Position numbers and translations under genes: made by a program. The notes beneath the pieces are model-generated. The model had not been told where the DNA came from. It searched no databases and saw only the letters and a program-made list of their open reading frames with translations. A DNA stretch of 64,000 nucleotides from Mytilus edulis (taxonomy: Eukaryota): assembly GCF_963676685.1 (NCBI RefSeq), contig NC_092353.1, forward strand, positions 2,356,001-2,420,000. The letters are read 5' to 3'. Below, in pieces: positions 20,520 through 62,841 of the stretch (its first letter is position 1; each line of letters opens with the position of its first letter).

Positions 20520-21203
20520 CTGCAATTATAAAATAAAAATCATTTAACTAAAGTATTATTAATAAGTTTAAAATACTTTCATTTATTTAGTGTTTTTATT
20601 ACACTTTAAATAAATATAATGAGACAAATCTTACACTATTAAAACATCGTCACTCTCAGAACTTTTATACAAAAGTTTTTATATTAAACACTTTTATTAT
20701 TAAAGACAACCCTTTAAAGGTATGAAAACTGTTTTCATTGTCAAAATTAAAGAATTTTATTTCGCTTTCAAATGAAAACGTGGCTTTAATATTTTTATGA
20801 ATTAAATTGACTTTTTGACATTTTAGCTACATTTAATAACAATTGACATTCAGGTGTTTAAAAGGTCTAACGCTGTACACAAGTCTCTTTTGATCAAATA
20901 CCGACATCGGATGTATGCAACGTTAAATTTATATACAAAAAATTTAATAATTTCCTTCGTCATAGCTTTTCACATTTATTAAATAATAATGATTTCTGTT
21001 TCCTTTGCTTTTCATCTTTTTTTAATAATAAATCCATGTACATTTCTACCTTTTGATAAATGAAATGAGTCACCATCATATTGAATTAACTTTATGTACA
21101 AGACCCTAACATACTTGTAACAAAACAACATAATGGATTTTAGATTTAATAATAAAAATCCAGGTAGGAAAAACATGTAAAAATATATGCTTACCTGTAA
21201 AAT

Positions 21204-22172
21204 TTATAAGGGAAAAAATGACCTGAGATCAGGTAATTCGTCCTCCTCCGAGCTGAATGACTCTGATAGATTTTCTGAAGCGGACGGACTATGTTGCATA
21301 GAGATGTAACTGGTCGCTGGTGAATGCTGCATTGTCGGGCTATACTGGTACTGATAATTGTCCGAACTGTAACCAGAAGTTGTGGATCCGGTATCAAACG
21401 ACATTGTTTTATCCCCGGTGTAACCATTTTTCGTGTTGTCAAATGAAATGGTATTGTCCGGATTATAATTAAATGTTTGTAAAGGTTGGTATATCACTCG
21501 GGAATCCTGTATCTCATCAATTTCTTCATCAATGTTCTGATAAGCCATCACGTTATTAGTGTTATGATAGAGATTTCCACTTTGATAATTTTCCTTGTCA
21601 CTGAGACATTGTTCACTCTGACATACTGTCCTGTTGTCGTTGTTATTTTGATTATGTGAGAACTGTAAACTCTGGTGTATTTCACTGTCTACGTTTTGTT
21701 GTAATTTGCTCCTTGAATCATTTTCATTTTCGGAATCCATACTTTCACCATCAGTGTACATTAATAATTGTCGTAATTGTTTGATGTATTCAACAGCTGA
21801 CTTTAGTGTGTCAACTTTACTCAGTTTCTTGTTCTTTTTTCCGTCCGGGACATGATCCCTCAAAGTCTCGAATCCTGAGTTAACCATTTTCACTCTGTTT
21901 CTTTCCCTTTCGTTACGTCTAGCCACAGTTGCTGGTTGTGGTTTCGGAAGCAAATGGTGTAGTCCTTTTCCGTCTGTTCTACGTTTGCATCGCAGCATTT
22001 CTGGTTCTTTTGGTGAAAGTGGTTCCTGTTTCTTCAGCCGTCTTTGGGCTTGTACTTGTTGAGCTACTGTTGTTGTTGTTCTGACCAAAATAAACGGTCC
22101 TGTCATTTGAACTCCGTTATTATTTATTGAAGTTAAAGCTTGGATTGGAACCAAGCTTATGGTCGATGCCAT
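21204..22172 (-). CDS. ASCL: Achaete-scute family (ASCa / ASCL1-like) proneural bHLH transcription factor, uninterrupted CDS, 322 aa
   Basis: b[30 protein letters not shown]...[23 protein letters not shown]; upstream PEMLRCKRR motif typical of ASCL1/2-type proteins; acidic C-terminal motif [14 protein letters not shown] (cf. SPEEQELLDFTNWF). Confidence 0.96.
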
Positions 22173-22194: not shown

Positions 22195-22420
22195 AGTCGC
22201 GTGGTTGAATGTCGAAATTGCCTCGCGACCTGATGACAATATCGTCTGCTCTTAAAAACTTCGGAAATTCATAGATTGGGAGATTTAAATATCGCTGGCG
22301 TGATAAGCCCCGCCCATGCGTACAAAGTCACACCCGCGGCTTGCTTCTGTAAAAATTGTATAAACATTTAAATGTCCCTTAAATGTCAATCAACTTTCAA
22401 TCGTACGAACGTCGCGTGCC
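22195..22420 (-). promoter_or_regulatory. Achaete-scute proximal promoter with Hairy/HES site
   Basis: Minus strand: GGCACGCGAC (22420-22411), GC box GGGCGGGGC (22315-22307), TATA-like TATTTAAA (22292-22285), second CACGCG (22203-22198). Confidence 0.7.
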
Positions 22421-25035: not shown

Positions 25036-25089
25036 CACGTGATAAAAAACACGGCACGCGCCAGGTGTTCCTTTAATGTAGGGCGGAGC
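25036..25089 (+). promoter_or_regulatory. Candidate enhancer: HES site overlapping an E-box, plus GC box
   Basis: cacgtg (25036), GGCACGCGCC (25053-25062) overlapping CAGGTG (25062-25067), GGGCGGAGC (25081-25089). Confidence 0.5.
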
Positions 25090-26493
25090 ATTTTAGGCTC
25101 GCGTTCATTAGAATTTAAAACCAGTTTGTAATACATATATCATCGTTGTTAGTATATCAAAAACGAAACAATTAAGAATACAACTGCTATGTGCAAACTA
25201 CAAAGACCTTGCCAAATTTAGATTTTTATGTGTAAACTAATTCTTAAAAGAACTTAAAATCTGTTAGCCGTGTTTTTTTATATTCCATTTAGTTTTGTTG
25301 TTCATGCCGGTTTGTTATTGTTTTTAGTGTTGCTTTTGGGTGCATTATATATAGCTTTACCTTCGACTGTATGACTTCATGTGAAGGCAAATTATTAGAG
25401 GTCTTTCCCGCGTCGGTTATTCGTGTGTTTGGTTGCGTTCTTATATCATTTTTCTATCAATGTATGCTGTCTACAAGTATATATGAAGCTCTTAAGTCAA
25501 TAAGTATATGGGGAAAAATATTTAAAATGTTTGAACTAATTATAAGATACATGTCCATTGTAACATGCTTAACATTCATTGAGAATTTAACTGTTTACTG
25601 TCAAATAAAAAACAAATTGTTTCGAAGACTATAAGTTAACGTTTAATATTTACTGTACCAATTTACTTATTTGGTTTAGGTTTAAATATAAGTCATATAT
25701 ATACCTTAAATTGCGTTTAACAATTTATTTTTTGTTTCTGACAGCATAAATTTGCTCCATGCCTATTTGTTTTGAAATATCTCCAAATATTTATAGCGTA
25801 TATATCTGTAAAATCAAAGAACAAACAAAGTCAATATTTTGATAAGGATATAAATAGTTGGCTGTTCGGCAATGCCTATAATTTGTTAATCGACCTTGAT
25901 GGTATAGGTTTCCGTATATAACAAGACTCAATCTATAATAGTGTACAAAACGTATTCCATGTCCCTGGGACATTTGTAATTTCATCTCTTTTTCAATTTA
26001 TTACGAAAATTTTGCATCACAAAAAGTATTTGTGGAGAAGGCTTAAAAAGAAATAGGTTACAAAACACATAATGTACTTGTGGGGTTGATTGAAAATAGC
26101 CGAGGTGTAACGAAAGGATTCGCTCATCTAAAGTCAGGTGTCCTAAATTAATGTTTTACTATAAATAATTTCGTAAAACTACAAGCAAGCTTTCAATTTG
26201 GAGACTTTTGTTCCGTCGTGATCAGAAGAATCTACGAGTGAATACACTCTTATGGGTATCGTAAAAAATGGTTAAATTAAATTTCTCGTCGAGTAGCGGT
26301 CGTTAGTCAATGTTACAACCACTCGTCTAACTCCAGGTGTGATCTAAGAATTAATTGTATTTTTTTTTAAATCTTGTAACAAATATGTTTAAAAAAGCAA
26401 TTTCTACAACTAGAATATTAATACCCATGATAAGTCAAAGTATAAAGGGTGTCAAGGTGGATGACACTTGAGGTTAAGAGGTCAAAAGTACAT

Positions 26494-27320
26494 TCTAAAT
26501 TTTATGGAAATATTCATTATAAAGCACAAAAATGTCAGTATTCTCCTCAGAAACTAACAAAACCTTTAAATAGACTTATTAAAAGGGGATATAGTTACGA
26601 TACTGTTGTCAGGTCATTAAAGATTGCATATTTTGGCTTTAACATTGATTCACTGATAGGGTCTTTGCATCGGAACTAAACACATTTATTTCTAAAAAAA
26701 ACAGTTGTTGGCATGACACGGGTTATGTTCTTCTCATATATTTTATGATAGTATGATACTAAACCCCTAACGGGAGGGATTGTACCTGATATTCATATGA
26801 TGAAGACATAATCTTTCAATCAGTTTAATTGAGGTCTGGAGCTGGCATGTCAGTTAACTGCTAGTAGTCTGTTGTTATTTATGTATTATTGTCATTTTAT
26901 TTATTTTCTTTTGTTACATCTTTTGACATCAGACTCGGACTTCTCTTGAACTGAATTTTAATGTGCGTATTGTTATTCTTTTACTTTTCTACATTGGCTA
27001 GAGGTATAGGGGGAGGGTTGAGATCTCATAAACATGTTTAACCCCGCCGCAATTTTGCGCCTGTCCCAAGTCAGGAGCCTCTGGCCTTTGTTAGTCTTGT
27101 ATGATTTTAATTTTTAGTTTCTTGTGTATAATTCGGAGTTTAGTATGACGTCCATTATCACTGTACTATTATGCATATTTTAGGGGCCAGCTGAAGGACA
27201 CCTACGGGTGCGGGAATTCTCGCTACATTGAAGACCCATTGGTTGCCTTCGGCTGTTGTTTGCTCTATGGTCGGGTGGTTGTCGCTTTGACATATTCACC
27301 ATTTCCTTTCTCAATTTTAT
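26494..27320 (+). mobile_element. 3' end of a retroelement, probably Penelope-like: ORF tail plus UTR ending in a dispersed repeat module
   Basis: KFYGNIHYKAQKC...LNRLIKRGYSYDTVVRSL...* tail; terminal module 27125-27320 recurs at 32134-32455. Confidence 0.55.
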
Positions 27321-27339
27321 TAAAACTTAAGGGTGATGG

Positions 27340-27556
27340 GAAAAGTAAAATCACAAAAGTACTGAACTCCGAGAAAAATTCAAAATTGAAACTCCCTAAT
27401 CAAATGGAAAATTAAAAGCTCAAGCGCATCAAAAGATTGGATAACAACTGTCATATTCCTGACTTGGCACAGGCATTTTCTTATGTAGAAAATGGTGGAT
27501 TGAACCTGGTTTTATAGCTAGCTAAACCTCGCACTTGTATGACAGTCACATCAAAT
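27340..27556. mobile_element. Dispersed non-autonomous repeat, family A (inverted copies ~39716-39863, 41322-41583, 45470-45692, 48236-48448, 54555-54895, 55545-55750)
   Basis: Shared blocks ttagctagctataaaaccaggttcaatccacc, cctgtaccaagtcaggaatatgacag, ggagttcagtatttttgtgatttt. Confidence 0.8.
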
Positions 27557-28649
27557 AGGAATGAGAAAGTACATGTAGGTGAAGGTTACACGATCAAAAT
27601 AAACATACAAGAATCAATTTACTAAAACATTTTATAACGGCAAAAACTATAACCGTTTCGTTAACCTATATAGAGAGATATAAAAGTTCGATGTGACTTT
27701 ATGTTTGCCTCTACTATTGACAAATATACACAACCTTTCTTGTGGACTTAATATAATTATGTGTGTCAAAATTATAATGGCATGACAGAAAATGAGGATT
27801 GACACCATGTAGATTGACAAAGTTCGAATGTTGTTTAAAAAAACCAGATTAGCCTTAAATAAAATATTAAAGAATTCCTATTCATTTGTCTATGGAATAA
27901 ATGGAAAATAATTTTCTTTCCACGCCATTAAAATTTCATTCTACAAATGTACTTGCCTCAGTTGACAACTTCAATCGATTACATAGACAAAAAAGTACGT
28001 TAACGCTTCAAACTGAGATTAATTAAATATTTCAATGGTGCTTAACAAAATGATGAACTCTCCTTTTTGTGAGGTAAGAAAGTGATAATAATGTTTGATT
28101 GTGATTGAGATGTTATCGGGTACTGTCAGGTTTTTGTGGCACGCGCTCATAGCGGGTACATAACCACACGAACTTCACACCCTTATAGACTGTCTACCTT
28201 GGAGTTAATAATTACCTGGTCAGGTAGGGGTGATATATGATGTGGTCACTCAGTAAATTCTTATAATTATAATCATTAAGCATTTTGTGGTAACGTTGTC
28301 GACTTTCGGTGATGACAGTTGTTCACCTGATTAGCATCGCTCCATTGTAGACGTTTGTTCAAATTAACCATCATTCGATCACAATCGGCAAACAAGCTGT
28401 TGACATGAATAATTTTCAATTTTTTTTTTTTTTTACTCCATAACAAAATTCGGGATTGGTATTTTTTTGGTATTTTTTTTATTATTATTATTATGATCAT
28501 CGAGTTTACTGTTTCACCTGTGTTCGAGGAACGGTTAAATTGTCTTTGAACTTTTTACAAGATTTTAAATGTATTTGAACTTAAAAATCGGGAGATTTGG
28601 TATGCCGGATTGCCAATCAGACAATAATCCAACAAAGTTAAAATGAAAT

Positions 28650-29320
28650 AAATGTTAGTAAATTATTATAGGCAATCGTACAACCTTCAACAATTAGAAA
28701 AACCCATACCAAATGTTAGTAAATTATTATAGGCAATCGTACAACCTTCAACAATGAGAAAAACCCATACCAAATGTTAGTAAATTATTATAGGCAATCG
28801 TGCAACCTTCAACAATTAGAAAAACCAATACCAAATGTTAGTAAATTATTATAGGCAATCGTACAACCTTCAACAATGAGAAAAACCCATACCAAATGTT
28901 AGTAAATTATTATAGGCAATCGTGCAACCTTCAACAATTAGAAAAACCCATACCAAATGTTAGTAAATTATTATAAGCAATCGTACAACCTTCAACAATG
29001 AGAAAAACCCATACCAAATGTTAGTAAATTATTATAGGCAATCGTGCAACCTTCAACAATTAGAAAAACCAATACCAAATGTTAGTAAATTATTATAGGC
29101 AATCGTACAACCTTCAACAATGAGAAAAACTCATACCAAATGTTAGTAAATTATTATAGGCAATCGTGCAACCTTCAACAATTAGAAAAACCCATACCAA
29201 ATGTTAGTAAATTATTATAGGCAATCGTACAACCTTCAACAATTAGAAAAACCCATACCAAATGTTAGTAAATTATTATAGGCCATCGTACAACCTTCAA
29301 CAATGAGAAAAACCCATACC
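28650..29320. repeat. 61-bp minisatellite, 11 copies, inside a dispersed repeat (~28590-29390)
   Basis: Unit aaatgttagtaaattattataggcaatcgtacaaccttcaacaattagaaaaacccatacc. Confidence 0.97.
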
Positions 29321-30349
29321 GTTTTAATTTGTCGGCTATAAAAAGACCCCAACATGAAAAATATTAAACAATTAAATTGAGATAACTAATGCTTATGATT
29401 AATTCCTAGATTTTTCATGATTTGAGACTTTAAGTCTAACGTATTCGTCCCAGTTCTTATAGAAGACTGACATCACCACCATCAAATAACCTTACCAGAT
29501 CTTACTAAAGGATGTTTATATTTTGACTGTACCGACCAAATATCAAGATATTATAGTATGTCTGTCTTAATTATTTTAACGGGAGGGGCAATGTACATAT
29601 ACATGTAGTTTCTATTCATCGATATAAATGTATGAAATTGGATTGTAATCTTAACCGAAAAAAGGAGGGAACTGACATGTAACTAATTATAGTACAATAC
29701 TGAACTATTGATCTCTATCAGTTGTACAAATTCCTTGGGGGTATCTGATTACCAATCTAGACACATTATCATATAACACAACTGTTGACTGTATTACATG
29801 GCCGTCTAATGCGTGAATTATTCATTAAATTTTTAACAGTTTTGGGCTAGTAAGTGTACTCTCTTTGATAGTATGTGTGATGTGATAAAATCAGTTTTAT
29901 GTATTTGCATATAAACTACAAGTCATAAATTTTAATAAGTTGATATTGAAATATTAAGAACAATCGGCCTTTAAAATGTTCAAATTAGCAATTGCTGAAT
30001 TTAAGTTTTGTTCTGAAGTGATATTTTTATAATCTGTCGCAGTATGGTTAGGCATCGATAAATAATTCATTCAATAAACTCGTCATAGATACCAGGAATT
30101 AATTTTGTACGCCAATCGTGAATTGCGATTACAAGACTCATCGATGACACTCGAGAGAAAAAAGTGATATAAGCAAGCAACCGAAAAAAGTACAAAGTCA
30201 TTTAAAAAATAATTTTAAAATAGATATAAAATAAGAAGATGTGATATGATTGCAATGAGACAACTATCTACCAAAGTTCAAAAGATATGGATGTACATGT
30301 AGGTATGCTGATTGGACTTCTCTAGGTAAAAACGAATAGATATACCACG

Positions 30350-30782
30350 TCCACTTGTATATTTATCCATCTGATGAGTTAAGCCTTTTTCAACTGATTT
30401 TTATAGTTCGTTCTTATGTTGTACTGTTATACCACTGTCCCAGGTTAGGGGAGGGTTGGGATCCCGCTAACATGTTTAACCCCGCCACATTATTTATGTA
30501 TGTGCCTGTCCCAAGTCAGGAGCCTGTAATTCAGTGGTTGTCGTTTGTTTATGTGTTACATATTTGTTTTTCGTTCATTATTTTACATAAATATGGCCGT
30601 TAGTTTTCTCGTTTGAATTGTTTTACATTGTCTTATCGGGGCCTTTTATAGCTGACTATGCGGTATGGGCTTTGCTCATTGTTGAAGGCCGTACGGTGAC
30701 CTATAGTTGTTAATGTCTGTGTCATTTTGGTCTTTTGTGGATAGTTGTCTCATTGGCAATCATACCACATCTTCTTTTTTTA
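30350..30782. mobile_element. Dispersed non-autonomous repeat, family B (other copies ~12380-13055, 63020-63335; inverted ~53545-53775)
   Basis: Shared blocks gcctttttcaactgattt, catgtttaaccccgcc, cctgtcccaagtcaggagcctgta, cattggcaatcataccacatcttct. Confidence 0.8.
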
Positions 30783-31466
30783 TATATAATTGTATAAGTA
30801 TCCACACTTTTACCTGAACACTGCCACCTCCCCTTAAAACCAAATTGTATGGGTTCATTTTTGAAGTGATATCGTGATGCCTTCCTTATATGGTGTTGAG
30901 ATGTCAACAAGGTCACTTAAGTTGTTGTATCTTTATACAATATATTCAATATTTTATTTTATTTAAATCTCATCTCTCATACAAAAAATACTTAGAACTT
31001 GATTTCTTCAGAATGAAATAAAATCTCGTAAATGGCAGGTTTACAAGGATATAACAAAGACAATTTCAAGTATTACAATTTTACATAACGGTTACCCTAA
31101 TTCTAAAACTGAAACCCTCAACTGACCAATTAGCTGACCGCAAAACAAATATGAGTAATGACCAATTTTGTGTATACAACATATCGTGTGCGGTCTATTG
31201 TTATGCTTATTGTTTGAATATTCTTCTCTCATCCTCTACAAAAGCAGCATATCATGTTTGGCATCCGGGTAATACTATCGTTAGCTAACAACAACAGTAA
31301 TATAAGTTCTGATAGTGTTTGAAAATGAGAAGATACGCTGTTGATCGAACAGAATTAAAGGTTTTGAAAAATCTGGTGAGGTTCTGCTGAAGTGACAGGA
31401 TTAAAATAGTTGACAATATTTTACATACTAGCCTATAGATATCCCAGTATAAAAACATGGTCAGTC

Positions 31467-31554
31467 TTGTATTGTGATAGGATTAGTAATTGTGTATATA
31501 TAATGCCACTATTGTATTGTGATAGGATTAGTAATGTTGTATATATAATGCCAC
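31467..31554. repeat. 45-bp tandem duplication
   Basis: ttgtattgtgataggattagtaat...tatatataatgccac twice. Confidence 0.9.
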
Positions 31555-32084
31555 GAAAGTAACGTATCTATAAGTAGTCTTCTACAGCGTTTCACGTTGC
31601 TTTCATATAGAACATGAAACATCCATGAAACTAAGTTAATTACCTGGATGTCAACCGCTCATTAAAATTCATGTACCTTTAACCAGATTTAAACACCAAT
31701 AACTTTCACAGTATTTGTCTTGATGGTTGCATTCTACAAGCACTGTGTTTACATAAAACCTACTTATAAGTTGATCATTTTACGCAAGGATTATAGGACA
31801 CATGTCTTCATTTGATCATGAAATCCTTCTCTGATCTGATTTTTTTTTAATACTTCACATATATTATGGTTTATAAATTTAGAGAACAACGCTATACATA
31901 GTCATTCTAATAGATAGATTCAAATAGCAAACCATGTCACCCTGGCATAGATTCAGGTACCAAAATATGTCATCATGGCTGATAGACTTAGAAGGCAAAA
32001 CATGTCATCATGGAAGATATAAAAACAAAACATATTGCCTTGACAACTAGATTTAGACAGACACATGACGACCAGACATTTGTA

Positions 32085-32790
32085 TTCGAGAGCAACGCAT
32101 GTGCACGACGACATCGAATCCAGACTTTCGAAATATATAATTCGGAGGTTAGTATGACGTCCATTATCACTGTACTAGTATAACATTGAGAAAGGAAATG
32201 GGGAATGTGTCAAAGCGACAACAACCCGACCATAGAGCAGACAACAGCCGAAGGCCACCAATGGGTCTTCAATGTAGCGAGAATTCCTGCACCCGTATAC
32301 ATAGTATACATTTTTTAAGGGCCATCTGAAGGACGCCTCTGGGTTCGGGAGTTTCTAGCTACATTGAAGACCCATTGGTGGCCTTCGGCTGTCGTCTGTT
32401 CTATGGTCGGGTTGTTGTCGCTTTGACACATTCCCCATTTCCTTTCTCAATTTTATTTCGAAAGTATGTTATTCGTTTGCAAGACTACAATCTCTTCTTG
32501 AGGTATAAAAACACCAACATAAACAACAAGCTTGAACTATTCAACAGAAATATAAAATATGTTCTGCTGTATGGATCAACAAGATGGCGAATCATATAAA
32601 GTGACATACAGAAAGTAGAATTATTCCTTTGCATCTGTCGTCTTAAAATACACAAAATCTTTTGACCAAATAAGATCAACAACCAATAATTTTCAGGAAA
32701 GAAGCAACTGCAAAAACATCACAGATAATTGAAACACAAATCGTTTTTGATGGCTAGGCCAGTTTCTGAGAATGCAAATTGAAAGAACAC
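32085..32790 (+). mobile_element. Decayed RTE-like LINE RT C-terminal fragment, interrupted by an insertion at 32134-32455
   Basis: DDIESRLSK|VCYSFARL joins across the insertion; then KLELFNRNIKYVLLYGSTRW...PNKINN...WLGQFLRM, with stops. Confidence 0.75.
32134..32455. mobile_element. Short repeat containing an inverted copy of its own 3' part
   Basis: TSD tttcgaaa (32126-32133 and 32456-32463); ~110-bp inverted arms at 32185-32295 and 32340-32451. Confidence 0.85.
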
Positions 32791-35700
32791 TGATCCATAT
32801 CGAGTGTGTGGTATATTTGTTCGAGTTGAGCGTAAATACGCGTTATAAGTAACATTTATGTGTAACAGTCCTAATTCACGAACTTTGTTAGAAATTATCT
32901 GTATTTAAGTCGGAATGTTTTTGTCTTTGTCATTTTTGTAAACCGTTGTTTCTTGCATATTTTTATTTAAATACGTCCTACCCCTTTTACATTCGTGCTT
33001 GACATATTATACAATAAACCATGGTTGATGGTTGACAACCACATGTTTTACTTTAGATGCACTTAGATGTACTTATTTGTGCTGTTAACTTGTTAGGTTG
33101 TCTTCCAGTGTCATTAACTCTATCGTTTTGATCACAATACGTTAAATAAAAAATGTTAAGGAAGCATCAAATTCGTTTGTTTTTAAAAACATTTTACAAT
33201 CATGGTGGTATTGATATAGTAGTATTAGGAGGTTAAATGCTCACGTACTTTCGAGGTATAGAATTATCACCTGTTACAATTACCTAGCACCTACTGCAAC
33301 CCTCTTCATTGCAGTCTCGCTCAGATAATTAAATATGAGATGTTTTCAGTGTCTTTTTATCCCGTTTGTTTGTCTGACTTTTCATCCATCAATAGGACGC
33401 TTAGATAACATTATACATGTAGACAATAAAACAAGGAAGCAGTGATCATAATTGCACATTTTTATCAGACATTTCCGTTGCATCTTTAAAATGAAGATCA
33501 TTCATTAGATAATTCTAGGTATCTTGATATCCAACGAGTACCTAGTATACCGAAAGTAAGTCGAAACCACCCGAAAGTACAAACGATCACAATGTAATTG
33601 CAAGTCAGCTAAAAAATCCACCCTTCTATTTATTTCATTAATTTAAAAGTACTTTCTGGGTCTATTTTTTGCAAATTATCACAACGTTGTGAAATATCTG
33701 TGCGTTATAACTGTCATTTAAACTCTTCAACCTGAACAGGTACATGTATTTAACATCAATTAACGTTGTCTGGTGTATTAAACTTGCCTCTCAAATGATT
33801 AATAAGTGAAAGCGATAACATGTAATTACACATAGTCAGAGACATACAATTAAAGTACCATCTATTCACAAGACACGCGTTTTGTTATTTTATACATTTT
33901 ATGAAGAGAGGGTGCCACGGGTCTTTCTTCTCAATCCAATTAAGTATTTGAGAAATATAAGGTACATATCATGCTAACTTGTTGTAGGGAGAACTTGAAT
34001 ACTATACTTCAAGCTTATTTTTTTTAAGCAATAGGTCTTTGTTTTTGTTGTAGTGCTGCCTTTCTAGAGGAAAGTACTTATCAATACGGAAAAAAAACCT
34101 GCGTTATTATCATATTTGAAAGTTATTATGCATGCATCTTTTATCTGCAATAACGAGACAGAAACATCCATGTATATTATATATACTGTCCTGAACTTTA
34201 GCCAAAATCCTGCATATATATGAAATAATTGTCTGTATGTGAATTAAGCAAACACCAATCAGAAATCAATGAAATAATTTTGTATATATACTTATCTTTC
34301 ACCTGACTTACTACAAGCTTCTGTTTTACTTTATTTCTGCGATGAATCCACCTCGAATATTCAGGATCGCTATGTATACAGGACAAGTTGTACAAGACAG
34401 GTCCCACTCTCTGGAAGCCTCTAACATACCAGATATTAAATTAGCATTTTACAAGGAAATGTATTACGTGATTTGTAGCTTGATATGCAGTGAAAGGATA
34501 CAATTGTCAATAAAAGAAATCAAAACACAACAGATGGTGAAATATAGTGCATAAACACAACAGTTGGTATAGAGTTACCATACACACGATCGTACTAATG
34601 ATACCATTTAAATAAACACCGCTTTCATGACATGTAATATCTATCGTTAAACTTTAATTTCAATCACAAACTTTGAAGCTTTAGTTTTAATACTTTTGAG
34701 ATTCAATGATCCTGAATAAGACGAACTTTACTAGAATAAAGTGAAGCATGAAAATGTAACATGCAAAGCCGATATTATGAAATGAACACATCTTGTATCA
34801 CTTAAGATACAACATATTTGCATACGCATCATCGCTTGCTGTCCGTCATGAAACAAAGCAGGGCAGAATGTTGCTAATTATTGTTAAATTCATTCATCTC
34901 GATATTTTCAGTGAAAAGCCAGCCAATGTATATCCCAACGACCTTAAACATGATGAACAGTTATGTCTATTGTAATTAATTGATTAAAAATAATGTTATC
35001 CCCTGATTTGATTGGTGTATATCAGTGTCCTCACTTGCATTTCTCCCACAGTAAAACCATGCAGACACATGGGTGTGGTCGTCTGTTCAGAATGTGTAAT
35101 TATGTCTGCAAATTTTCATCTGAAACGATTGGGCGAATTGAAATCAATGTTAGAATGTTGGATTGCAAAATAATTTCAGATATTGCCTCTTACTATAAAT
35201 ACTAAGAATTGAACATGACAGAAAAACATATTTCAAATCGCCCATTGACTTGCAAACTAAAAAGAAATGGTACATTTAAAAATCTTCTTAAGGAACTGGG
35301 ATTGACTCGAACTTGCAGTAAAATGATCGCCACCTTATAAATAGATGATAAACCACGTGGTTATCTTGTTATCGACTCCTAGGAGTCGAGATTAAGAATT
35401 GAACGATGGACAGTTAGTGCGTGAATTTTTCTTGCTACCTGATTGGAAGATATTACGAGACGTGAATAATCAAAGTTTATTGATTGGTTAGGACAATCAA
35501 AACCTAGTAAATGTCCTTCAATCCCATAGAGTATCGGATTTGTTCTCTCTATTTTAGCAATTAGATTTTGCCTGGTCATTAATCCTGCATATTCACGATA
35601 TTGGTACACAGGTAATTTTTATTTATAAATAGTCGAATCTTCTGAAGTTTCGTAAACAACAACGTTAAACGATATATAATACTACATAACGTGTGACCTC

Positions 35701-38700
35701 ACGTGTGTGGTAAAATTTGTTAATTGATGCACGTGGATATTCTAGTAAATGAATTAATCTACAAAGCAAGAGCACTTTCCATTTTCATCAGCTAAGAGTC
35801 GATTAGCCCTTTTTGAAAGGCTAACGCTTGTGTGGCTATTCTTGTTGATATTTTTCACAGATTTTGTATACAGCATTGTGATGGGTAAAGGTAAAAGGTA
35901 AAGATTTTGCATTTTATTTTTTTACCTCAAAATGACCTGTGAACTGTTTAGCAGATTAGTATATATTCGATGCTCAGTTAATCTAAAATGAACGTATATA
36001 TATGTACTGGAGCCTCGAGAATGCAGCGAAACATTTTAATCCTGCTATTTGATAACTTACCTTTACAGGGGATGTGAGCCTATTAAATTCTGTGAACAAA
36101 ACTAAGGATCAGAATGGTAATTAATACTGAAATCAGGTCAGTATAACACTCAAGTTATTCTGGCTTCTCAAGTGATATTGGCTCATATTCTCTGTTGAAA
36201 ATAATGAAGATTAATTTTGGTAATTAATGTTGAAATCAGGAAACTCCTGTTAATCGGGCTTCACTCATATTCCTTGGCAGTGTCATATTTTACCCCTACA
36301 GCTTATGTATATGTACAACAATGACGGAAGATGAGCACACTTCGTCTCTTCAGATTCCAAATGACATATCATAATACCAACTTAAGAGCATCATGATCTA
36401 CTATGGATAATGATAATAATAGTAATACTGTATTAACCAAATTTCAGTTCTTCAATGTACTGCATGCGTCCATTCACCTTGGTAAAACATTTCCACGTCT
36501 AAATTTCATGTGGGATAAATTATGAACCATGACGTCCCACGTCGCCAAATTTTTTATTAAGTTGATGCATAATTTTTATATTTATCTTAAAATGTCGACA
36601 TTTGTATTTATACATTTAGAAATAAAACTTTAGGATTTATATACATAATCTCATTAGTAAGTGATTAATGTTTTGATATGTTACACCATTAAACGACCAT
36701 TTCCCTTTTATCAAATGGCGTTTTAAGGTTCCAAGGGTGAAATTGTAAAAATACAAGTTAATTTAAGTTTATATCACTGAATTTAAATATGTACATGTAT
36801 TTATAATGTAAATGCAAAATAAAAGTCATAATTTATACATTTCATTTAAGCAGTTAAGATTAATATCTGCCTTATTTGCACTAACTTGGATACGTTCTTT
36901 TATAGGAATGTTCGTCATAATTGAAAGTATAAAAAGACTATATTGTGCAGTTTATCGATCAACGATGCCATATCCGACTGGATAGATAAGTCTCTGTTTT
37001 TCATGTTTCTGTATTTTAAAATACTAAGGGCCACATCACTCACATAGACCTCTCATTATCGTCCATCTTTGTTCTGCAAATGTATCATTCAGATTTTGGG
37101 ACCGTGATGGCCTTCGGCTGTTTTCTGCTCTATAATCGGAGTTTTCAATGGTCTCTTTGCCACATTCCCCATTTCCATTTCTATTTAATTGATTAAGGCT
37201 GCACAATGTCTACACACAAACAAAATGTACAGTAAAAGGCTGTCTTTTTGATACATTTGTAAACAGGGCTAATGAGAATGCAATGCTAGTATTTAATGTT
37301 TACAACATTGTGTGTGAGGTTATACATTTTATACGAGATAAGGTGACTAAGTTAGACAAAACTACGTGTCATATTTCATCTTAGCTGTTTTAACATTTAT
37401 CCATACTTTTCATTACTTTCAATGACTATGGAATAATAATAAAATGTTCAGCCATCATAGTTGTTACATCCTAATTTTATCACTTGCGACCCTCTATTGA
37501 CCAAATAAATAGCTTAGCTTAAAGGTATTTCTACCAAAAGAAGAAAAAAAAGAACGAATACCAGTGATGTTAACAGATATTTTAAAATATTCTTGAAGGT
37601 ATTTCTACTATAAGAAAAAAAATTGCCTATCAAAGATGTTAAGTGTGCAGAGATAACTATATCCCTTCAAGTACCATTCACTGTTAAGGAGAAGTGGATT
37701 TCGTCTCGTAAAACCACAAATAAACAAACAAATACGTCAGATCAAGGCATCAAATTACATATTTACCAATATAAGCTGGTGTTCGTTAAATGATTTTGAC
37801 AGTTCGTGTACCGTATCAATCTCTAAAAGGCGACAATTTTAAAATTTCCAATGTAAACAACAGCTTAATGAGCGTACTTGTACAAGATAAAACAATAAAA
37901 TTCAATTTATTATCATCCGTTCTATATTATTGTCCAATACTGACCGGTCGTTGACAATGAAAGGCAAACCACTTGGCAAGTTAATTACTGGATAACTAGG
38001 TACAGAGGATGGATGGTCTGTCAACCATATGCAACTACATATGAATACCGCTCAGTCGGATTATGTTACGTGCTTTTCGACATGATAACAGTCTGCATGA
38101 ATCCAGGTCACCTAACCTGGCGTATTGTTACGATATAGAATATCTATGTCTTTACTCTAATTACTAAATATCGCTGGATTATCAGAAACTAACTTGGTAT
38201 TATTATTTTTGATGTTTTGTAGAGCATGTACACTAAGAGAGTCTAAAAAGTAGTACAACCAGAATCATTTCGCATATGCCTTGACTAGAGAAGTCACAAA
38301 CTTTTCCTGACTATCGGGGAATGAAAATCACATTATTATTGACCACGTTATATATGATATCAATAATCGTGTTTACGGCACATTTTTTTTATGAATAACC
38401 TTTATCAGGTCACATCGAGAACAAACGGTAAAGAAGCACTTGTTCTCTAGGTTGTTATATTAACCTTTATGTCTGTTTGCTCAACCAATGTTGTCAATAC
38501 ATCGAAACTTTTAACTTGACAATTGTCATACAAGTTGGACGTTTGGCTAGCTATACAACAAGGTTTAACCTACCAACATGTACCAATTATACCAAAATGT
38601 ACCCAGTAAGGAATATAATAGTTGTTTTCTTTTCTTTCCGTTGGTTGAGATGGCGGATCGTTTGATTTTTTAAGGTTTTATAAACTTACTTTTTAATTTA

Positions 38701-38739
38701 CCTTGGCGTTCCTTTCTTTTTAATACATGTTTCCAAATA

Positions 38740-39100
38740 GTTGTGTAAAATACGGCCAACGCAATCTAAACATTGAGGCAAAAACAATCTTTGTGTTAGG
38801 AGTAATTCAAAATTTGATAAATAGTAAATGTACAGAAATATGAAATTTAATTGTCAACACAAAAGTTCTGACTACTGGGTTAGTGATACACTCGAGGCTA
38901 TAACGTCCACCCGAGTGACATCGACCCAGTGGTAGTAAAATACATAAAATAAACCAGGCTTATAATTTGCTCGCCAGACGCGCGTTTCGTCTACACAAGA
39001 CCCATCAGGGACGTTCGAGTCAAAGCAGTTGAAAGGCCTTATCAAATACGAGTTTTAAGAGCATAAAAAAACAAAACTATAAAAAGGTATTTGCCAAAGT
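38740..39100 (-). mobile_element. Diverged retrozyme-family copy, hammerhead at 39014-38971 with CUGAUGG core
   Basis: Reverse complement cgtccctgatgggtcttgtgtagacgaaacgcgcgtctggcg; flanks resemble the 59-kb unit. Confidence 0.7.
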
Positions 39101-41689
39101 TGAAGACGGTACTAGAAGAGAAGTTGATGATCCAATGTTTACTCACACTTTAAATATAAGAAAAAAACAAGACTACTGTGAACAGTTTTGGACCGATTTT
39201 ACTTGCATTTTACACTAACAATGTTAGGATTATTTTTTAACTAAAATAAGAAAAACATAGATAAATTCATTTTTAAGGACCAGTGTCTGATGGTAGAATA
39301 TTTTCAGTAGAATTTTATTTTTTTTATTCACGAAGGACGAAACTCTTACCGAGATAGTATCAATGACACGCGAGCGGTCTCGTGACATGAATTTTAAATG
39401 ATATGCAGAGAAGGCGTTGATGGATCGAATAATATATCCAATTTTCTGAGGCTAGATTTTACGCCGAGAAAAAATTAAACTAATTCTTATATTCGCCAGT
39501 CATATCATTTTAACACTGTATATCATTTTAATGTACCCCACATTTTCGTTTATACATCAATGTTACATACAAAATTTGTATTTGGTATTTCAAAATAGTA
39601 AAATTTTGTTATGAATAGAATTATTAACAAAAGTATGATAATAAAATGTACTGCATTTTAAAAGTCTCAAAAATCATCTTAGTCTGGTAAATTTTCCACA
39701 TTACCACCATTTTTTATAAGAAAATACCTGTACCAAGTCAGGAATATGACAATTGTTATCCATTCGTTTGATGTGTTTGAGCTTTTGGTTTTGCAATATG
39801 ATTAGGGACTTTCAGATTTGAATTTTCCTTGGAGTTCAGTATTTTTGTGATTTTTATTTTTTTCACATAATTGGTTTACCCCCATGCAAGTTTAATCTAT
39901 CGGGTGAAAAGTAGCTGTGCAAGTGAAGGAAATCCCATATAAAGGTCTAAATATATAATATTAAGACAATATGATTTGAGTATATTATGAATTAAATTCA
40001 AAGCAAATAATCTTTGGACTAGACCATCAAGTATAATGGTACAAATTTGTGTATGACTGTGTCTTTATCTTTGAAATACCAATAACCGAATGCCATTGTC
40101 AAGTCACAAACTATTTGATAAGATAATATTTCATCATTTTATAATTTACACGGATTCTGCAAAAGTGCAAACATTGAATGTGTTTAAAATAAACAAGGTG
40201 GAGAAAAAACTTCTTTCAAGGCACACGAACGTGATTTGAGAAATAGTATTATTGTCACGCATTGTAAATGGTGTATGAACCAGAAGCTCGGCACTGGGTT
40301 TCACTGATGTCGACATACTATTTTGATTTTTGTAATGAGATTTTTACAGTCCATGATATGTTTGTTATCATAATGGAAATTATATTTCTTTTCAAAAAAT
40401 TAAAGTTCAAATCAGAACGGTAACATTATAATGAGTGAGTTTTACAAACTAAATACCCGTGTTACTATGTGCAAAGTCAAATTGTAAACAGTAAAAAAGA
40501 TATAAAATACAGTTATGTTACAAAAGGGTTCGTTGGCGCCAGTGTTGTTGGAGCTCCAATAATGTAAAGTTAAACAAGAAAGGTTATTCAAAGAATCAGC
40601 TCAGTCAATACATATGATCACATTTTCGATTTTGTTTACTTTTTTATTATTTTTACTCGGATGTTTGGTATTTGCTTCTATTTTGTTATTTTGAAATTTT
40701 GCCCCAAAAAGTAATAGTCATTTATTTAAGGTCAACAAAAAAATGTGTCATACGTTTTTATCTCTGAAAAAACGGAGTATACCGATTCCTATGATAAATC
40801 TATTTTTTGTAATTAAAACACATTTCAATCACATTTTGAATTATAATACTTTCTTTTTTATTCTCACTTAAATGATTTACGGAAACTAACTGGTATTTTA
40901 TGAAATCATACTTGAAAAATCCTACTTTAAGGCATTCTTGCATAGATTTATATTTGTTTACGAGATGAAAATACTGATTGAATACGAAAATCCCTTTTTT
41001 TAAAGATCTCAATCTATCGTATTTTACATTTGACAACCTAACTATATACATTAGAAAAAATCCTATAGTTTCAAATGAAAAAAAGTAATATGGTAAGCAT
41101 ATCCTACTCCACATATGGCATCATTACTATTCTATCTAGCTTCGATGCTGTTGCTGATGTAACTTTTGTGGTAAATTTAAATATAGAGTTTCACGTAAAG
41201 AGGTCCCCCAAAAATACCGACAATAAAACAAATAATCAGATGAATACAGATGAAACAACTTTCGTCGTATGTTTTCATCATTTTTACCTGTTATATATAA
41301 AACAGAAGATGTGGTATGATTGCACGTCTGTTTGTTTTGTTCACACATCGTTGTCAAGATAATTGAATTTTGTGCGACTGTCATACAACTGAGAGGTTTA
41401 GCTAGTTATTAAACCAGGTTCAATCCACTATTTTCTACTTAAGAAAATGCCTGTACTAAGTCAGCAATATGACAGTCGTTATCAATTCGTTTGATGTGTT
41501 TGAGCTTTTGAATTTGCCTTTCGATTGCGCACTTTCTATTTTGAATTTTTCTCGGAGTTCGGTATTTTTGTTATTATACTTTTTATCAATACATGGCTTT
41601 ATTACTAAAAGTACAAGTTTATCAATATGGACCCGCTCGTATATACTAAAACTCTTCGTTGAATTGTATATTTTGATATTGACGCCTTA

Positions 41690-42281
41690 AAAAAGAGACA
41701 AAAAGATACCAGAGGGACAGTCAAACTCATAGATCGAAAAGAAACTAACAACGCCATGGCAAAAGAAAACCACAAGACAAACAGACAAACAATAGCACAG
41801 ACGACACACCATATAAAACTAAAGACTAAGCAACACGAACTTCAGGAAAAACTTGGGGTAATATCAGGTGGTCCGGAAGGGAAGCAGATCCTGGTCCACA
41901 TGTGGCACCCGTGTAGCTTATGTTATCACAAATCTGGTAAATAGTATAATTCCGTTGGTCACATTCGTGAAAAGGGCAGGGTATTGTAGTTACGACATAA
42001 GGAACATATCCGATACCTTTAACATAACGGTCAACCAACTCGTGATGGCGTCCGTAAAATTTACGAAGGGATGATTTCAACTTCACCATTTCGGACTCTT
42101 GGTTTAAAAGCGTCCTTGTGAGCAGCAATACTCTATCAAGGAAATCCCGATAGGAAATACAAGCCCGCGAATAACGTTTCAATTGGAAGATATATACTCC
42201 GTATGCAGACAAGCTGGAATGTTGCAGAATAGAAATGGAAAGTTCACAATTGGGAAGCTGAAATCATCTATTTTGTCGTAA
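41690..42281 (-). mobile_element. 3' fragment of a related Penelope-like element (RT thumb plus 3'UTR)
   Basis: YDKIDDFSFPIVNFPFL / AYGVYIFQLKRYSRAC...LKSSLRKFYGRHHELVDRY, homologous to the C-terminus of ORF 56931-57530. Confidence 0.85.
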
Positions 42282-45200
42282 CTTAAGCTACGGCGAAATA
42301 AAATAAAGCGCAGAATCGAAGAAGAATTCCTCCAAAGAACAGAAAGTCCTGCAAGCTTTTAAGCAGCCTTGACATTTGATATGTATCTACACAGTGATGC
42401 ATAAAATGTTTAACATAAATAAATATACAAGACAGTACAACAAACTGTACACACCACGAAACTCCTCCGATATAAGGACGTGAAAGTAAATTAACAAAAA
42501 TAATATTTACAACTTATAAATAAACATTATAATTCTATCACCTGAAGATATTTATTTGAAATGTTATTCCACATTTTTGTTATTGTTGATGACGATTTAT
42601 TAATCAGATTTTACAGGTATATAACTGTCATAATATATCAAATAAATGTAGGAAATTTGATAATTATATTGCTTGAAGAATTAGTAGAAATCATTTGAAG
42701 GGAGATATTGTTTTATTTATCTTGATAGTTATTGTTTAATCAGTAGACACGCGTCTTATCGCTTATTTTCTCTTATTCATATTTCAGTTTTGACAAGATC
42801 ATTTTCATAAATTATCAATTAATTACCTGTACACAAACATACCTGCTTTTACAAAATACATAACTACATTTATAAGAGCATTTTATCTTGATTAATGTAA
42901 CTGGTATGTAAATTTATATCAATATATTCATATTTTATTTATATTTATTAAACTGCATTTTCGAATGTATTCAACGTTGTGATATGCATTGAAATATACA
43001 ATTGTTGAATTACATAAATGCCACAAGATATTGCCACACCATTTACAACTCTTTCTACACCGTACTTAAATTTGCATTATTTGTAAATCGTAATAATATT
43101 TAGCACACAAGACATGCATAAATGAAACTGCAATCATATCACAAACTACGATTTAAATAAAATAATAAAAATATCAAGTACGTGAATCATAAGTTAAATG
43201 AATACCTGATATCCTAATGACCAATAACGAAAAGTAAGAAAATCTCAAAACTGTAGAACGTATGTGCTTTAGAAGCAGTTTAACTATTTATCACTAGTAA
43301 CAACTTACGTTAATGGTCACTTTGATTAATTGGCTGATTGTTTAACGTCATGTTGCATCAATATATAAAAGGTCTCAAGGTACTGTAAAAGTTTGCATGT
43401 TGCCCAACATATTGATGTAGATTTTTAATCAGTAAAAGCAAACAATTGAAATGATACTAGTAGTACTGAATAGAGACATCAGTAGTATTACGCTGTTCAA
43501 CAGTCGTAACACGATTTTCGAAGAAAACACGTCAACTCTAAGGAAAAAACAAACACAATGAACTGCTATAAAAACAAACGCCAACATACATAGAAACGGA
43601 CTATTTGATATCAAATGTTATATTCGTGACTTGGTACAGGACATTTAAAAAAATAATGGCGGGTTAAACCTGTTTTTTTGGCTAGTCAAACTTCCCGCTT
43701 TAAATCAATAATCAATTTTAAGAAGTTGATGCGACCATCGCCAACATTTTGAATAATAGTACGTACTGAATCTGGAACAGGTAATGCAAACATCGTCGAA
43801 AGTTGAAACAATAGAATTTTATCAGTTAATAACAGCATTGCCAATAGTTGGAACATAAATAATACATCAGTTAATGCCAGCCGCGCTAATAGTTGGTACA
43901 ATAATACTTAAAGAGTTAATGCCAGCATCACCAAAAGTTTAAATAATAGTACTGAATCTGTTAATGCAAGCATTGTCATTTGATAAAACTTTTATTTCTA
44001 TCTCTCTTTACTATAAGGGTAATAGTCAAAGAATGTATACGATATTTGGATAGATTAGTAAATTTTAGAAGTAAAAAATGTTATGTGAATATTGATGTAA
44101 AATTATCAAAATGTCATGCAAAAATATTAATTTATGTGCATTATATCACAGCAGATTAAGATAGCAAGAAATATATTAATACTATTGGAACCAATTGAAG
44201 AGTATAAAATATATATACATCTGATTTTGTGTGTGCATTTTTTTTAGTACATGAACTGCCTAAGTATCGTATGTTTATATTTGGGTTCACTTTATTAAAA
44301 AAAAGTATGCAAATAACATAATTAGAATGTCATAAGGTAATATTCCAAAATCTTTGAACGCTTTTATATCGTTTCACTTCTAATCCAATATTTATCACAA
44401 GTTGCTTATGTCTGTAAACACAACAAGTTTTGCTTCAATGAGAATACGACAAAAATCTCCTTTAATATATTTACTTTAACTAATTTATTTCTGTATTTAC
44501 AAATCAAAAATTGATAACACACGGAATAGTTTTAACCCAGGCTCATCTTTTTTTTTATCACCGATTAACTTCAAACAAAAGACAGATAGAATATTGTTAC
44601 ATTAAATCATGTAAATGAACCAATGGCACGCGAGATACTCGTGACATGAATATTAATAAGGACATGTCGGTGATTTTTGTGTAAGTAAGTTTTATGAAGC
44701 GTAGCAGCCACTGTTTGTGTAGTTCAGATTTCACATTAGAAAACGTCTGTACGCGTGTGTCAATTCCCTCTACACATATCGTATTAACTTTGCAATCGGC
44801 TTATTTTACACATATGAACGAGTCAAAATTTCTAAATTTGATTATTCTTTGATGCATGTTCACACAGAACTGTCTTGTAGCAAGTACAAATCAGTTAATA
44901 GTTACTATCAGTTTTAAAGACGATAGGATTGTTTATAAATACAAATAAAACAGTAAGAAGCTGCAGTTTTGTATCGAGCGATATTTCTCATTCCAGACCT
45001 TCGTGAATTTACTTGCAGTGTACGATGTAGAAGAGTTATTCACATTCTGATAAAATTTAGTGTTTCCGGTTATGTTTCTATCTAGTAGAACTACAAGAGA
45101 CCAAGTAATACAGAAATAAACAACTATAGGTCACCGTCCGGCATTCAAAAATGAGCGAAACAAATAATGAACATACTGTAGTGGCTCTTTCTAAGAAGCA

Positions 45201-45789
45201 ATTCACAATAAGCATATGAAAAGCGGCAAGATAGACTTCTCATTTAGATTCTGCAGAGGATATGCCTTAAAAAACTATAGACTACATTCTGTTCATACTT
45301 TGAACGCGCGATTATATGTCAAAGTTAATGTTGATATAACCATGTGCCTGTCAGTATAAGGAAACGGTCCCAGCACTTTAAATATTTCTATCCTTTAAGG
45401 GTGGATTTATCATAGATAAGTAAAATCGTATAATAAAAAAGCAATGAATGAGGATGTTAAATTTTATATATGCCTTTTTGTGCTTCTTTGTTACATATTT
45501 GTTTGTTTTTATAGTGATTAAGATTATAACACAATGTTGACTGCTGTACCCCTATGTTTGACATTTTTACATATTTTTTCTGTTTGTTTTGTTCACGCAT
45601 CGTTGTCAATATATTGAAATTTGATGCAACTGTTATACAAGTGAGTGGTTTAGCTAGCTATCAATCCAGGTTCAATCCACCATTTTCTACATGATGTAAT
45701 TGACTTCAAGTCATCGTACGGTCTGCATCAAATAACACGTGCAGTTTTTTTTTGTTTGTAAACAAATTTCAAATGTTCGTGTCTATCCT

Positions 45790-46020
45790 GTTTACAAAAC
45801 TTTGAAATTTTTGAAAAACTAAGGATTTTCTTATCCCTGGCATAGATTACCTTAGCTGTAATTGGCACAACTTTTTAGGAGTTTTGGATCCGCAATGCTC
45901 TTCAACTTTGTACTTGTTTAGCTTTATAAATATTTTGATATAAGCGTCACTGATGAATCTTATGTAGACGAAACACGCGTCTGGCGTACTAAACTATAAT
46001 CCTAGTACCTTTGATAACTA
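45790..46020 (+). ncRNA. Same retrozyme family, one hammerhead at 45944-45987
   Basis: gcgtca ctgatga atct tatgt agac gaaa cacgcg tc tggcgt (G10.1>A); flanks are the reverse complement of ~59152-59390. Confidence 0.8.
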
Positions 46021-47053
46021 ACTATAAAATTGTGTGACACGTTCGAAGTTCACGATATGGTAGCAAGTGTTAGGTGATACATGCATAACAGGAGATGCTT
46101 ACACCGTCGATGTTCCATGTCGTGCTCCTTTTACTCCATGCGACTCTCTAAGATTTTGTTGATTATATTGATCAATTTTTTTAATCAATTTTGTGAGATT
46201 TGAAAATCGTTTAATCACATTGTTGCCTTTATTTATTTATCTTTAATCAAATTTCAAACATTTCATTGAAAAATAAATGTGTTTATCTCCCCAAGTCCGT
46301 TTGAATCTGTCTTACATGTTTTTCTTCTTATTTGGTATATTTTTTTCTTTTCTTTTCAATCATCAGTTATGGTTGTAAAGACAACAATGTAAGAAATATT
46401 CCAAAACAATACTAACGAAAGCGTGATGAAAACTCAAGGGTATAATTGAGTATGCCCAATATATTTTCATATTCATACAGCTAATCAGTGACGCCCGATA
46501 TGGAAGGTTTAATTGATTAAGAGTTGCAAAGCATTGAAATCAAGAATTCCAAAATGGTTTGCCAAATTTTGTTATAGCCATGCATTTATCTTATATCTGG
46601 TGAAATGATTAGTTGTTCGAATAATTCAATATTTTTTAACATTAGATTTACAGAAATGAATGTATCACTAATATCAATGGCACAGAAGAGTGTTTAATAC
46701 TGGACAAGTGAAATAGATCCAGTTGTAGTGACTTCCTACTCGAAGATTGAAATAGATCCAGCAGTTATGAAAAAATTCCAATGACATTCTGCTTATAGTT
46801 GATACACCGGACGCCTGTTTCATCTTCAGAAGATTCATCAAAAGCACTGGACTAAACGAATAAGAAAGTAAAAGCAACATCGAATTTAAAGAACATTTTA
46901 CAAAGTCTTGCGAAAAAGTAAATATACGGTTTTAAAATCATCAACACTCAATGAAAAGAATAACCTGACTTTTGTTATATATTTATAGTACTTATATATA
47001 TATCGATTATCCATTCTGAGATGAGGATAATTCTGAGCACAGGTGAAGTTTAA

Positions 47054-47084
<31 letters not shown>

Positions 47085-47758
47085 AACCACCACCCACCAT
47101 TTTCACTTTAAGTTCTTTTTTCGTTCTCTCCGTCGACTTAATTTATTTCAAATTTCACAGGTAACACAATATTGAAACCAAACATGATTTGTATAAAAGT
47201 CTACCATTAAATACAAAATTTCACTTCGTTGTATTTGCTATGATTCATTACTAGCTGTGAATATTGGTAAAAATGACATGTACACTTTGTTTTAACCTTA
47301 CATGAATTAAAAGAAATGTTTGAAGAAATCAAAATTCGATTTAACCGATTGATTTGATTATTACTTTATGACACCTTTTGATTAAACTTTACATTGCTCT
47401 TGCTTTCACATGTTGGGATTTAAACGTTCCTGGCGAATGTAAATCTAGGAATTCATAATGGACGCATAAAATTGAAACAGTTTTCATTTTTCCTTTCATT
47501 TTACAAAAGAAAAGTAACAATTATATATCTTTTTTCACCATATATGTAAGGATGTAAGTAAAACTGAAAACTTATGAAAGATAAATATTTTTAAAAAACT
47601 GTTAAGAAGCAATCATCATTGTAATATAACGTTGTAAATTAAAATCTTTTGTTTCTGGGTGATGAAATGAACTACAAGTATTAATATCAAGGAAAGAAAC
47701 ATTAAACATATTTACACATTAACCATTAGTTAGAAAGTATTTATAAATAGCTTTCAAG

Positions 47759-47791
47759 GGCACGCGACAGCTGCATTTTTTGAGGCGGAGC
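47759..47791 (+). promoter_or_regulatory. Candidate distal enhancer: HES site overlapping a proneural E-box, plus GC box
   Basis: GGCACGCGAC (47759-47768) overlapping ACAGCTG (47767-47773), then GGCGGAGC (47784-47791). Confidence 0.5.
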
Positions 47792-62475: not shown

Positions 62476-62841
62476 ATGGATTTCTTAAAACAGTCCATAA
62501 TTCAAGCAATCGACGAGGCTTCAGAAGAACTAGAAGAACTGAGCAAAGATATATGGCAAAATCCGGAACTTTGCTTTATGGAACATTATGCGCACGAAAA
62601 ACTAACCAATTTTCTTGAACGTAAGGGCTTCGTCGTTACCAAGAAATTTATTTTAGAGACTGGATTTAAAGCTGAAGTAGGCACAACCAAAATGGGACCC
62701 AATATTGCTGTAATTTGTGAGTACGATGCGTTACCGGTTATCGGACATGCATGCGGACATAATTTGATTGCCGAAGCTGGTGTTGCCGCTGGTCTTGGAA
62801 TAAAAGCAGCATTGGGGAAAATGGAAAAACCATTTGGCAGG
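62476..62841 (+). CDS. PM20D2: M20 peptidase domain-containing protein 2-like, coding exon 1
   Basis: IWQNPELCFMEHYAH, IAVICEYDALPVIGHACGHNLIAE are M20D/ACY1L2 motifs; phase-0 donor AGG|gtaagc at 62841/62842. Confidence 0.92.

Follow-up and report, generated by a model that had tools for sequence, protein, structure and literature searches.

How is an achaete-scute (ASC) gene of the mussel Mytilus edulis controlled by the DNA upstream of it, and is there a repeated arrangement of binding sites behind that control? The question is raised by a stretch of 64,000 nucleotides of contig NC_092353.1 (positions 2,356,001 to 2,420,000), called here the window, in which an earlier note had pointed out two short modules. 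In each of these a HES repressor site was said to overlap a proneural E-box and to be followed by a GC-rich word, and the two were proposed to be enhancers where repressor and activator compete. We found that the observation is exact and not due to chance, and that the modules are a single-copy, non-repeat, locus-specific variant of the known link between HES proteins and ASC genes. Judged from the arrangement of their sites, it is an evenly balanced proposition that the modules are redundant repressor–activator switches where binding of HES and binding of an E-box activator would exclude each other.

The form of the two modules is given in Table 1. Both lie in reversed orientation relative to the ASC gene, 2881 bp (module 1) and 25587 bp (module 2) from its ATG, and these distances, the spacers and the coordinates agree with the earlier note, which had given 2.9 and 25.6 kb. 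The HES word, GGCACGCG, occurs five times in the window (22413-22420 on the minus strand; 25053, 28138, 44625 and 47759 on the plus strand) and every copy is 5' of the ASC gene, as had been claimed against an expectation of ~0.1. Shuffles of the window contained a mean of 0.15 copies, and five were reached in 0 of 100. In the genome used for all genome-wide counts (G000, 1.368 Gb) there are 1323 copies, which is 0.062 per 64 kb. The word is thus rare genome-wide, and five copies in the window have a Poisson P of ~7e-9, although real sites are more clustered than Poisson, with two other clusters among the first 100 matches listed. Their reading as class C sites for HES next to a gene of the ASC family is supported by the open reading frame at 21204-22172, which has 100% identity to a Mytilus achaete-scute protein, and by the 10-mer ggCACGCG(A/C)C that Hairy binds (available text of PMC449821). 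The full 10-mer is present at three of the five sites (22413, 25053 and 47759), and those at 28138 and 44625 match its first 9 bases only. The bHLH-repressor core CACGYG is present in both modules, and the GC-rich word, GGCGGAGC, has two copies in the window, one per module. The window gene is one of three ASC genes in 105 kb (G000:C10, 2273394-2378172; reading frames at 2273394 on the plus strand, at 2303453 on the minus strand, and the window gene). The 264 kb around this cluster contain nine GGCACGCG, one of them proximal to each of the three paralogs, and each paralog has GGCACGCGAC in gene orientation ~250 bp or less from its start. Two bHLH genes of more distant kinship, examined with 100 kb of surrounding sequence apiece (200 kb total), had no GGCACGCG.

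Whether the HES site and the E-box overlap depends on how much of the HES site is counted. The 6-bp cores have 1 bp between them and do not overlap, which refines the earlier description. The overlap is with the 12-bp site selected as optimal for HES (tggCACGTGcca; available text of PMC1950541, where Hes1 is also reported to bind a class C site of Mash1). Module 1 matches this site at 10 of 12 positions and module 2 at 9 of 12, and the first two bases of the E-box (CA) are the last two of the HES site. This is an overlap of 2 bp with the centers of the two sites 7 bp apart, a distance that suggests two bHLH dimers would clash. A search for GGCACGCG-N-CAGSTG gave four genome matches, which represent three loci: the two modules, and a further locus that is present in two copies of 99.8% identity. 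The probability of GSTG given CA is 0.0048. Among ~49 non-repeat GGCACGCGMCA sites, a number extrapolated from 40 sampled of 131, the three loci where the site continues as an E-box compare with 0.23 expected (P = 0.002), and in the ASC cluster two of the four CA-ending sites run on in this way (P = 1.4e-4). When HES-to-E-box spacers of 0 to 12 were counted, spacer 1 accounted for 4 of the 15 genome matches (3 loci) and the other 12 spacers for 11. The overlap is real, yet the surprise is lowered because the CA of the E-box belongs to the HES flank and only GSTG is extra. The third word was counted as GGCACGCG-N5-35-GGCGGAG, which has two genome matches, both at the modules. The expectation is ~0.44 genome-wide and P is ~1e-7 for its presence at both E-box-bearing sites, with the background taken from 1.25 Mb of tiles and the word picked after it had been seen. 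Its GC core is GGGCGG in module 1 and AGGCGG in module 2, and we take GGCGGAGC to be similar to Sp motifs. An E-box with GGCGGAGC and no HES site had 17 genome matches compared with 64 for a control word, which is no enrichment, and a loose GC word stood beside 1 of 40 sampled HES-like sites. The idea of a grammar repeated through the genome did not survive these counts, as the three-part form is found at the window locus only.

Table 1. Coordinates in the window of the modules, the other predicted sites and the genes
Feature	Position	Strand	Remarks
Module 1, GGCACGCG-C-CAGGTG-N14-GGCGGAGC	25053..25089	+	HES site 25053-25060, CAGGTG 25062-25067, GGCGGAGC 25082-25089
Module 2, GGCACGCG-A-CAGCTG-N10-GGCGGAGC	47759..47791	+	HES site 47759-47766, CAGCTG 47768-47773, GGCGGAGC 47784-47791
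Extra class B box, CACGTG	25036..25041	.	Starts 17 bp before module 1
Single HES class C site	28138..28145	+	No E-box or GC word alongside
Single HES class C site	44625..44632	+	Second CACGCG 127 bp away
Proximal HES class C site, GGCACGCG(AC)	22413..22420	-	241 bp before ATG, gene orientation
TGATTGACA word	22384..22392	-	Just downstream of proximal HES site; presumably PBX/TALE-like
Promoter GC box, TGGGCGGGGC	22307..22316	-	ASC promoter
Achaete-scute (ASC) bHLH gene	21204..22172	-	322-aa single-exon open reading frame; HLH PF00010, E 3.6e-19
3' untranslated region intron of ASC gene	20520..21194	-	GT...AG; contig from probable RNA run joins 21195 to 20519
Xaa-Arg dipeptidase (M20 peptidase) gene, first coding stretch	62476..62862	+	Divergent; rival target, 14.7 kb from module 2

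Chance matches or fragments of a dispersed repeat could in principle look like this, and two mussel repeat families do carry look-alike words. The relaxed class B composite GCACGYGNCAGSTG has 129 genome matches compared with 17 for its control, and GGCACGCGACA is a single repeat family in 25 of 40 sampled sites. Neither module scores on a repeat profile, however: with the third locus they reached at most 0.6 on the two look-alike profiles, where planted-core controls that scored had a median of 0.2. Each 171-bp module region matched itself alone in the genome, in a search where no match does not prove rarity, and all five GGCACGCG sites of the window are single-copy among 126 tiles. With the low composite probabilities given above, an origin in chance or repeats is largely refuted and we consider it extremely improbable. 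Of the three conditions that the earlier note named as refuting, two (repeat origin and a high genome-wide frequency) were checked, and neither spoke against it. The same controls removed two apparent enrichments, and we therefore claim no genome-wide grammar. The excess of GCACGYGNCAGSTG was rejected as such a grammar when 26 of the 30 copies fetched proved to share flanks of a tRNA-SINE-like repeat. The excess of GGCACGCGMCA (131 compared with 26 for the control) was rejected as an extended HES signature, with 25 of the 40 sampled sites being one repeat and ~49 sites left after repeat removal compared with ~42 expected. A GGCACGCG cluster at C1:112.76-112.82 Mb was likewise rejected as independent sites; it consists of two pairs of duplicated sequence among exons that we take to be esterase-like. 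The tRNA-SINE-like family has tandem CACGTG and CAGGTG (L238-L266) and another family has a full HES class C site (L268-L307), and the two could spread bHLH-type sites.

At the third locus (C10:18286162) the HES and E-box composite precedes an Orange-domain-only gene, at a distance of 2376 bp from its first coding exon and in reversed orientation as in the window. The predicted protein has 206-212 aa and no bHLH. Its Pfam Orange domain is weak and below the cut-off (E 0.04), 2 of its 11 relatives carry PF07527, and its named relatives are from Mytilus and Pinctada. A predicted promoter near 18286850 contains GCAGGTG, CACGCG and a CCAAT box, and the third composite may therefore sit in the first non-coding intron. 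Two further copies of the last exon were seen at this locus (L037, L038, L045-L047; G000:C10:18.19-18.29 Mb). Among the first 100 matches listed, GGCACGCG is most densely clustered (five in 4.3 kb) at 0.9-5.1 kb upstream of a SoxC gene (L180, G000:C1:69662550-69668766) with best matches to SOX11 and SOX4. Two CGTGGGAA words of Su(H) type are also found in the 5.2 kb upstream of this gene, and CAGCTG follows one GGCACGCG site at spacer 8. From these sites SoxC is a candidate direct target of HES and Notch. A panel of 20 regions with bHLH, Orange or Sox genes, each 20 kb long and picked before counting, contained five GGCACGCG compared with 0.39 expected (P = 7e-4 for the four left when a paralog copy is removed). 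Two further regions, picked after the panel, have GGCACGCG-type sites near neurogenin-like and Ptf1a/Fer-like genes; these names, and NeuroD below, are resemblances that we assume. Reading by eye of the long open reading frames in 10-kb stretches around five other near-spacing HES/E-box matches and C1147 recognized no developmental regulator. Two HES-like paralogs (L204-L207, G000:C13:45.68 and 45.74 Mb) have an upstream block in common, in which a HES site precedes a GTGGGAA word, presumably of Su(H) type, and CCACGCCC, presumably of KLF type.

To place these results it is useful to compare them with known systems. A HES class C site on an ASC gene is already known and is not new here, and because this link is established our surprise is capped. 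The fly achaete probe bound by Hairy contains GGCACGCGACAG, and the proximal site of the window (22413-22420) has a 10-mer identical to this oligo, which runs on as ...ACAG and is then identical to module 2 over 12 bp (available text of PMC449821). In the fly, CAG does not run on into a complete E-box, unlike the mussel modules. The mussel gene has five class C sites spread across 25 kb, and at two of these a full E-box is joined on, with GGCGGAGC after it. The class C site was reportedly found by Rebeiz, Stone and Posakony in 2005 to be ancient upstream of ASC genes. For a comparison across animals we took ASC loci on metagenome contigs, using the best 80 of 224, which give 54 distinct bHLH peptides. 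Thirty-three of the 54 loci have at least 800 bp upstream and were counted; the other 21 were left out. Ten of the 33 carry GGCACGCG on the gene strand within 1.2 kb, compared with one of 33 on the other strand and 0-2 of 33 for five control words. The closest relative, L079, has the proximal site in only 622 bp of upstream sequence, and the site has the same position in the window gene, L079 and L080. The proximal position is thus alike in the mussel and other animals.

Two arthropod systems are also close to the modules. In the proneural plus bHLH-repressor (P+R) code of the fly neuralized gene, proneural E-boxes and CACGYG sites occur together in two separate modules of one gene, neur4D and neur1B (available text of PMC6070291), as E-box and CACGYG words do in the mussel. 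That text does not describe the sites as overlapping, whereas the mussel P and R sites share bases and are followed by a third word; the E-box of module 1 also departs from the P definition. The sensory organ precursor enhancers (SOPEs) of achaete-scute and asense likewise combine E-boxes, which there serve autoregulation, with repressor boxes close to a gene of the ASC family (PMC2958161, in the part available). Their alpha and beta boxes are spread across 250-1100 bp without strict order, compared with less than 40 bp and a fixed order in the mussel. On sequence grounds the mussel modules may work like the P+R code and the SOPE. What is new here is the overlapping HES and E-box composite with its one further locus at the Orange-only gene, and the five-site cluster at SoxC. 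In the literature searched, the three-part form with overlap did not turn up; key papers and supplements were outside it, and an earlier description is possible.

Taken together, these sites can be arranged in a conditional scheme. By analogy with the systems above, HES dimers very probably occupy each of the five GGCACGCG sites and bring in Groucho, so that ASC would be kept off. As HES falls, an E-box dimer, probably ASC with an E-protein, would replace it at the two modules. Positive autoregulation of ASC with mutually exclusive occupancy is plausible on this basis, at slightly less than an even chance. At GGCGGAGC an Sp/KLF zinc-finger factor might provide a GC-box input, and the loose spacing of this word (10 or 14 bp) suggests an independent helper; this is the weakest part of the scheme and we put it forward tentatively, with more doubt than confidence.

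Several results weigh against a competitive switch at the modules. Outside the window, HES-to-E-box spacers of 0-12 are flat, with ~1 match each. GGCGGAG occurred within 100 bp of none of 40 sampled GGCACGCGMCA sites, and the third locus is without it. GGCACGCG itself was absent from 16 of the 20 panel regions. Conserved proneural sites in the fly neur enhancers are largely dispensable if mutated singly (available text of PMC6070291). Among the 80 foreign ASC loci, the exact HES and E-box composite was found in none, the HES-to-GGCGGAG arrangement in none, and a relaxed composite in one, L149. Two close relatives with long upstream sequence, L080 (10 kb) and L081 (5.2 kb), have no composite and no upstream block that can be aligned with the window. 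L079 aligns with the window and stops ~600 bp upstream. Upstream sequence exceeds 3 kb in 15 of the 54 foreign loci, and the close relatives among these are L080 and L081 only. With so few long, close loci, 0 of 80 shows no deep conservation but says nothing on Mytilidae. In ~1%-diverged contigs from two other organisms no change fell in module 1 among the differences listed (4 of 17 and 1 of 3 being hidden), where ~0.3 would be expected, and the power of this comparison is near nil. The composite in L149, CACGCGACAGGTG, lies 3.6 kb downstream of its ASC match, a relative of gene 2 of the mussel cluster.

The same absence would fit a history in which the HES sites are functional and the E-box and GC word common to both modules were left over from a single small duplication long ago, with one copy or the HES part alone mattering and no grammar. 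The modules do have a common orientation, T-rich spacers and TTAG shortly after the GC word, and the three-part form occurs nowhere else in the genome or in the 80 foreign loci. Alignments of 300-bp module flanks gave scores equalled by 3.4% (upstream) and 17% of random pairs. The upstream similarity is borderline, and overall there is no detectable homology, as the earlier note had said of the flanks. Against this, none of the three words is broken, whereas both the length and the sequence of the spacers have diverged, a pattern expected from selection on the words, and the HES and E-box part recurs at the unrelated Orange-domain gene locus. We consider relic duplication unlikely.

The identity of the E-boxes also bears on how the modules are read. 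Proneural sites for Ac/Sc are defined as RCAGSTG (available text of PMC6070291). The E-box of module 2 fits this on both strands, but that of module 1, CCAGGTG, does not, so the label proneural is in keeping with the sequence of module 2 only and the misfit is a further point against the proposed switch. CAGGTG is also a site for the Snail/ZEB repressors, which is another. The modules might instead be silencers, with HES on the class C site and the E-box read by a Snail/Scratch/ZEB repressor or by ASC/E dimers that tether HES, all sites being additive. E(spl) proteins are known to repress via E-boxes by association with Ac/Sc (PMC2958161, available text). There is also the further CACGTG 17 bp upstream of module 1. 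Additive repressors, however, have no need of overlapping bases. CAGCTG, the E-box that module 2 has in common with the third locus, is not known as a target word of Snail/ZEB. With the purine flanks it has at both places it matches the SOPE E-box consensus of arthropods (PMC2958161, available text), and we consider silencers quite unlikely.

A last point against the proposed switch on ASC is that module 2 is closer to the divergent peptidase gene (14.7 kb) than to ASC (25.6 kb). Module 2 could therefore regulate the peptidase gene, and/or the 15-bp HES and E-box string could be one site for a multi-finger protein or for two cooperating bHLH dimers, as the 1-bp spacer is identical at all three loci. 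The remaining four sites of the window and the paralog sites point to ASC, however, and the fixed spacer follows from the shared CA flank, with an E-box core that varies (GG or GC). These possibilities appear improbable to us, and we return to the competition of HES and an activator for ASC as the preferred reading.

Some further features of the locus were recorded. The ASC gene is covered from 22244 by a contig of probable RNA origin, which is spliced across the GT-AG intron of the 3' untranslated region, downstream of which the exon extends to at least 20121. This intron begins just past the stop codon, an arrangement that vertebrate ASCL1 presumably has too. In the promoter, TGATTG(A/G) was within 70 bp after 5 of 12 foreign proximal HES sites. 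The longer word TGATTG(A/G)C is 7-37 bp past the proximal HES site in the mussel window and in foreign loci L079, L080, L101, L110 and L121, and genes of HES-like and neurogenin-like type have it past their class B sites. The ASC promoter may thus contain a second word of ancient origin. A third GGCGGAGC is found inside the peptidase gene region (L033, G000:C10:2426051); it shares AGGCGGAGCTTAG with module 2 and has no HES site. Tandem repeats (units of 57, 28, 61 and 37 bp) and a repeat fragment common in this genome, which we take to be reverse-transcriptase-like, occupy window positions 13592-15145, 16852-17500, 28528-29437, 51618-52394 and 56931-57530.

A wider speculation, which we regard as rather doubtful, is that in mussels the overlap switch is used on both sides of the circuit, twice on ASC and once on an Orange-only possible HES antagonist, and that homotypic GGCACGCG clusters mark the direct HES regulon (three ASC genes, SoxC, and the NeuroD-, neurogenin- and Ptf1a/Fer-like genes). 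If this were true, the HES regulon could be read from sequence alone and would give the first testable cis-regulatory map of mollusc neurogenesis. The earlier note gave the modules a role in lateral inhibition, through which Notch and HES may shape neurogenesis in spiralians. Against such a role, Notch has no major part in larval neurogenesis of Platynereis (PMC5356439, available text), while Notch inhibition during regeneration in this worm causes ASC genes to rise (PMC13172424, available text). The modules supply exact bases to mutate in a mollusc. Changes in GSTG only and changes in the HES core only would separate the two inputs, and this makes a clean test between competition on the DNA and tethering of the HES protein.

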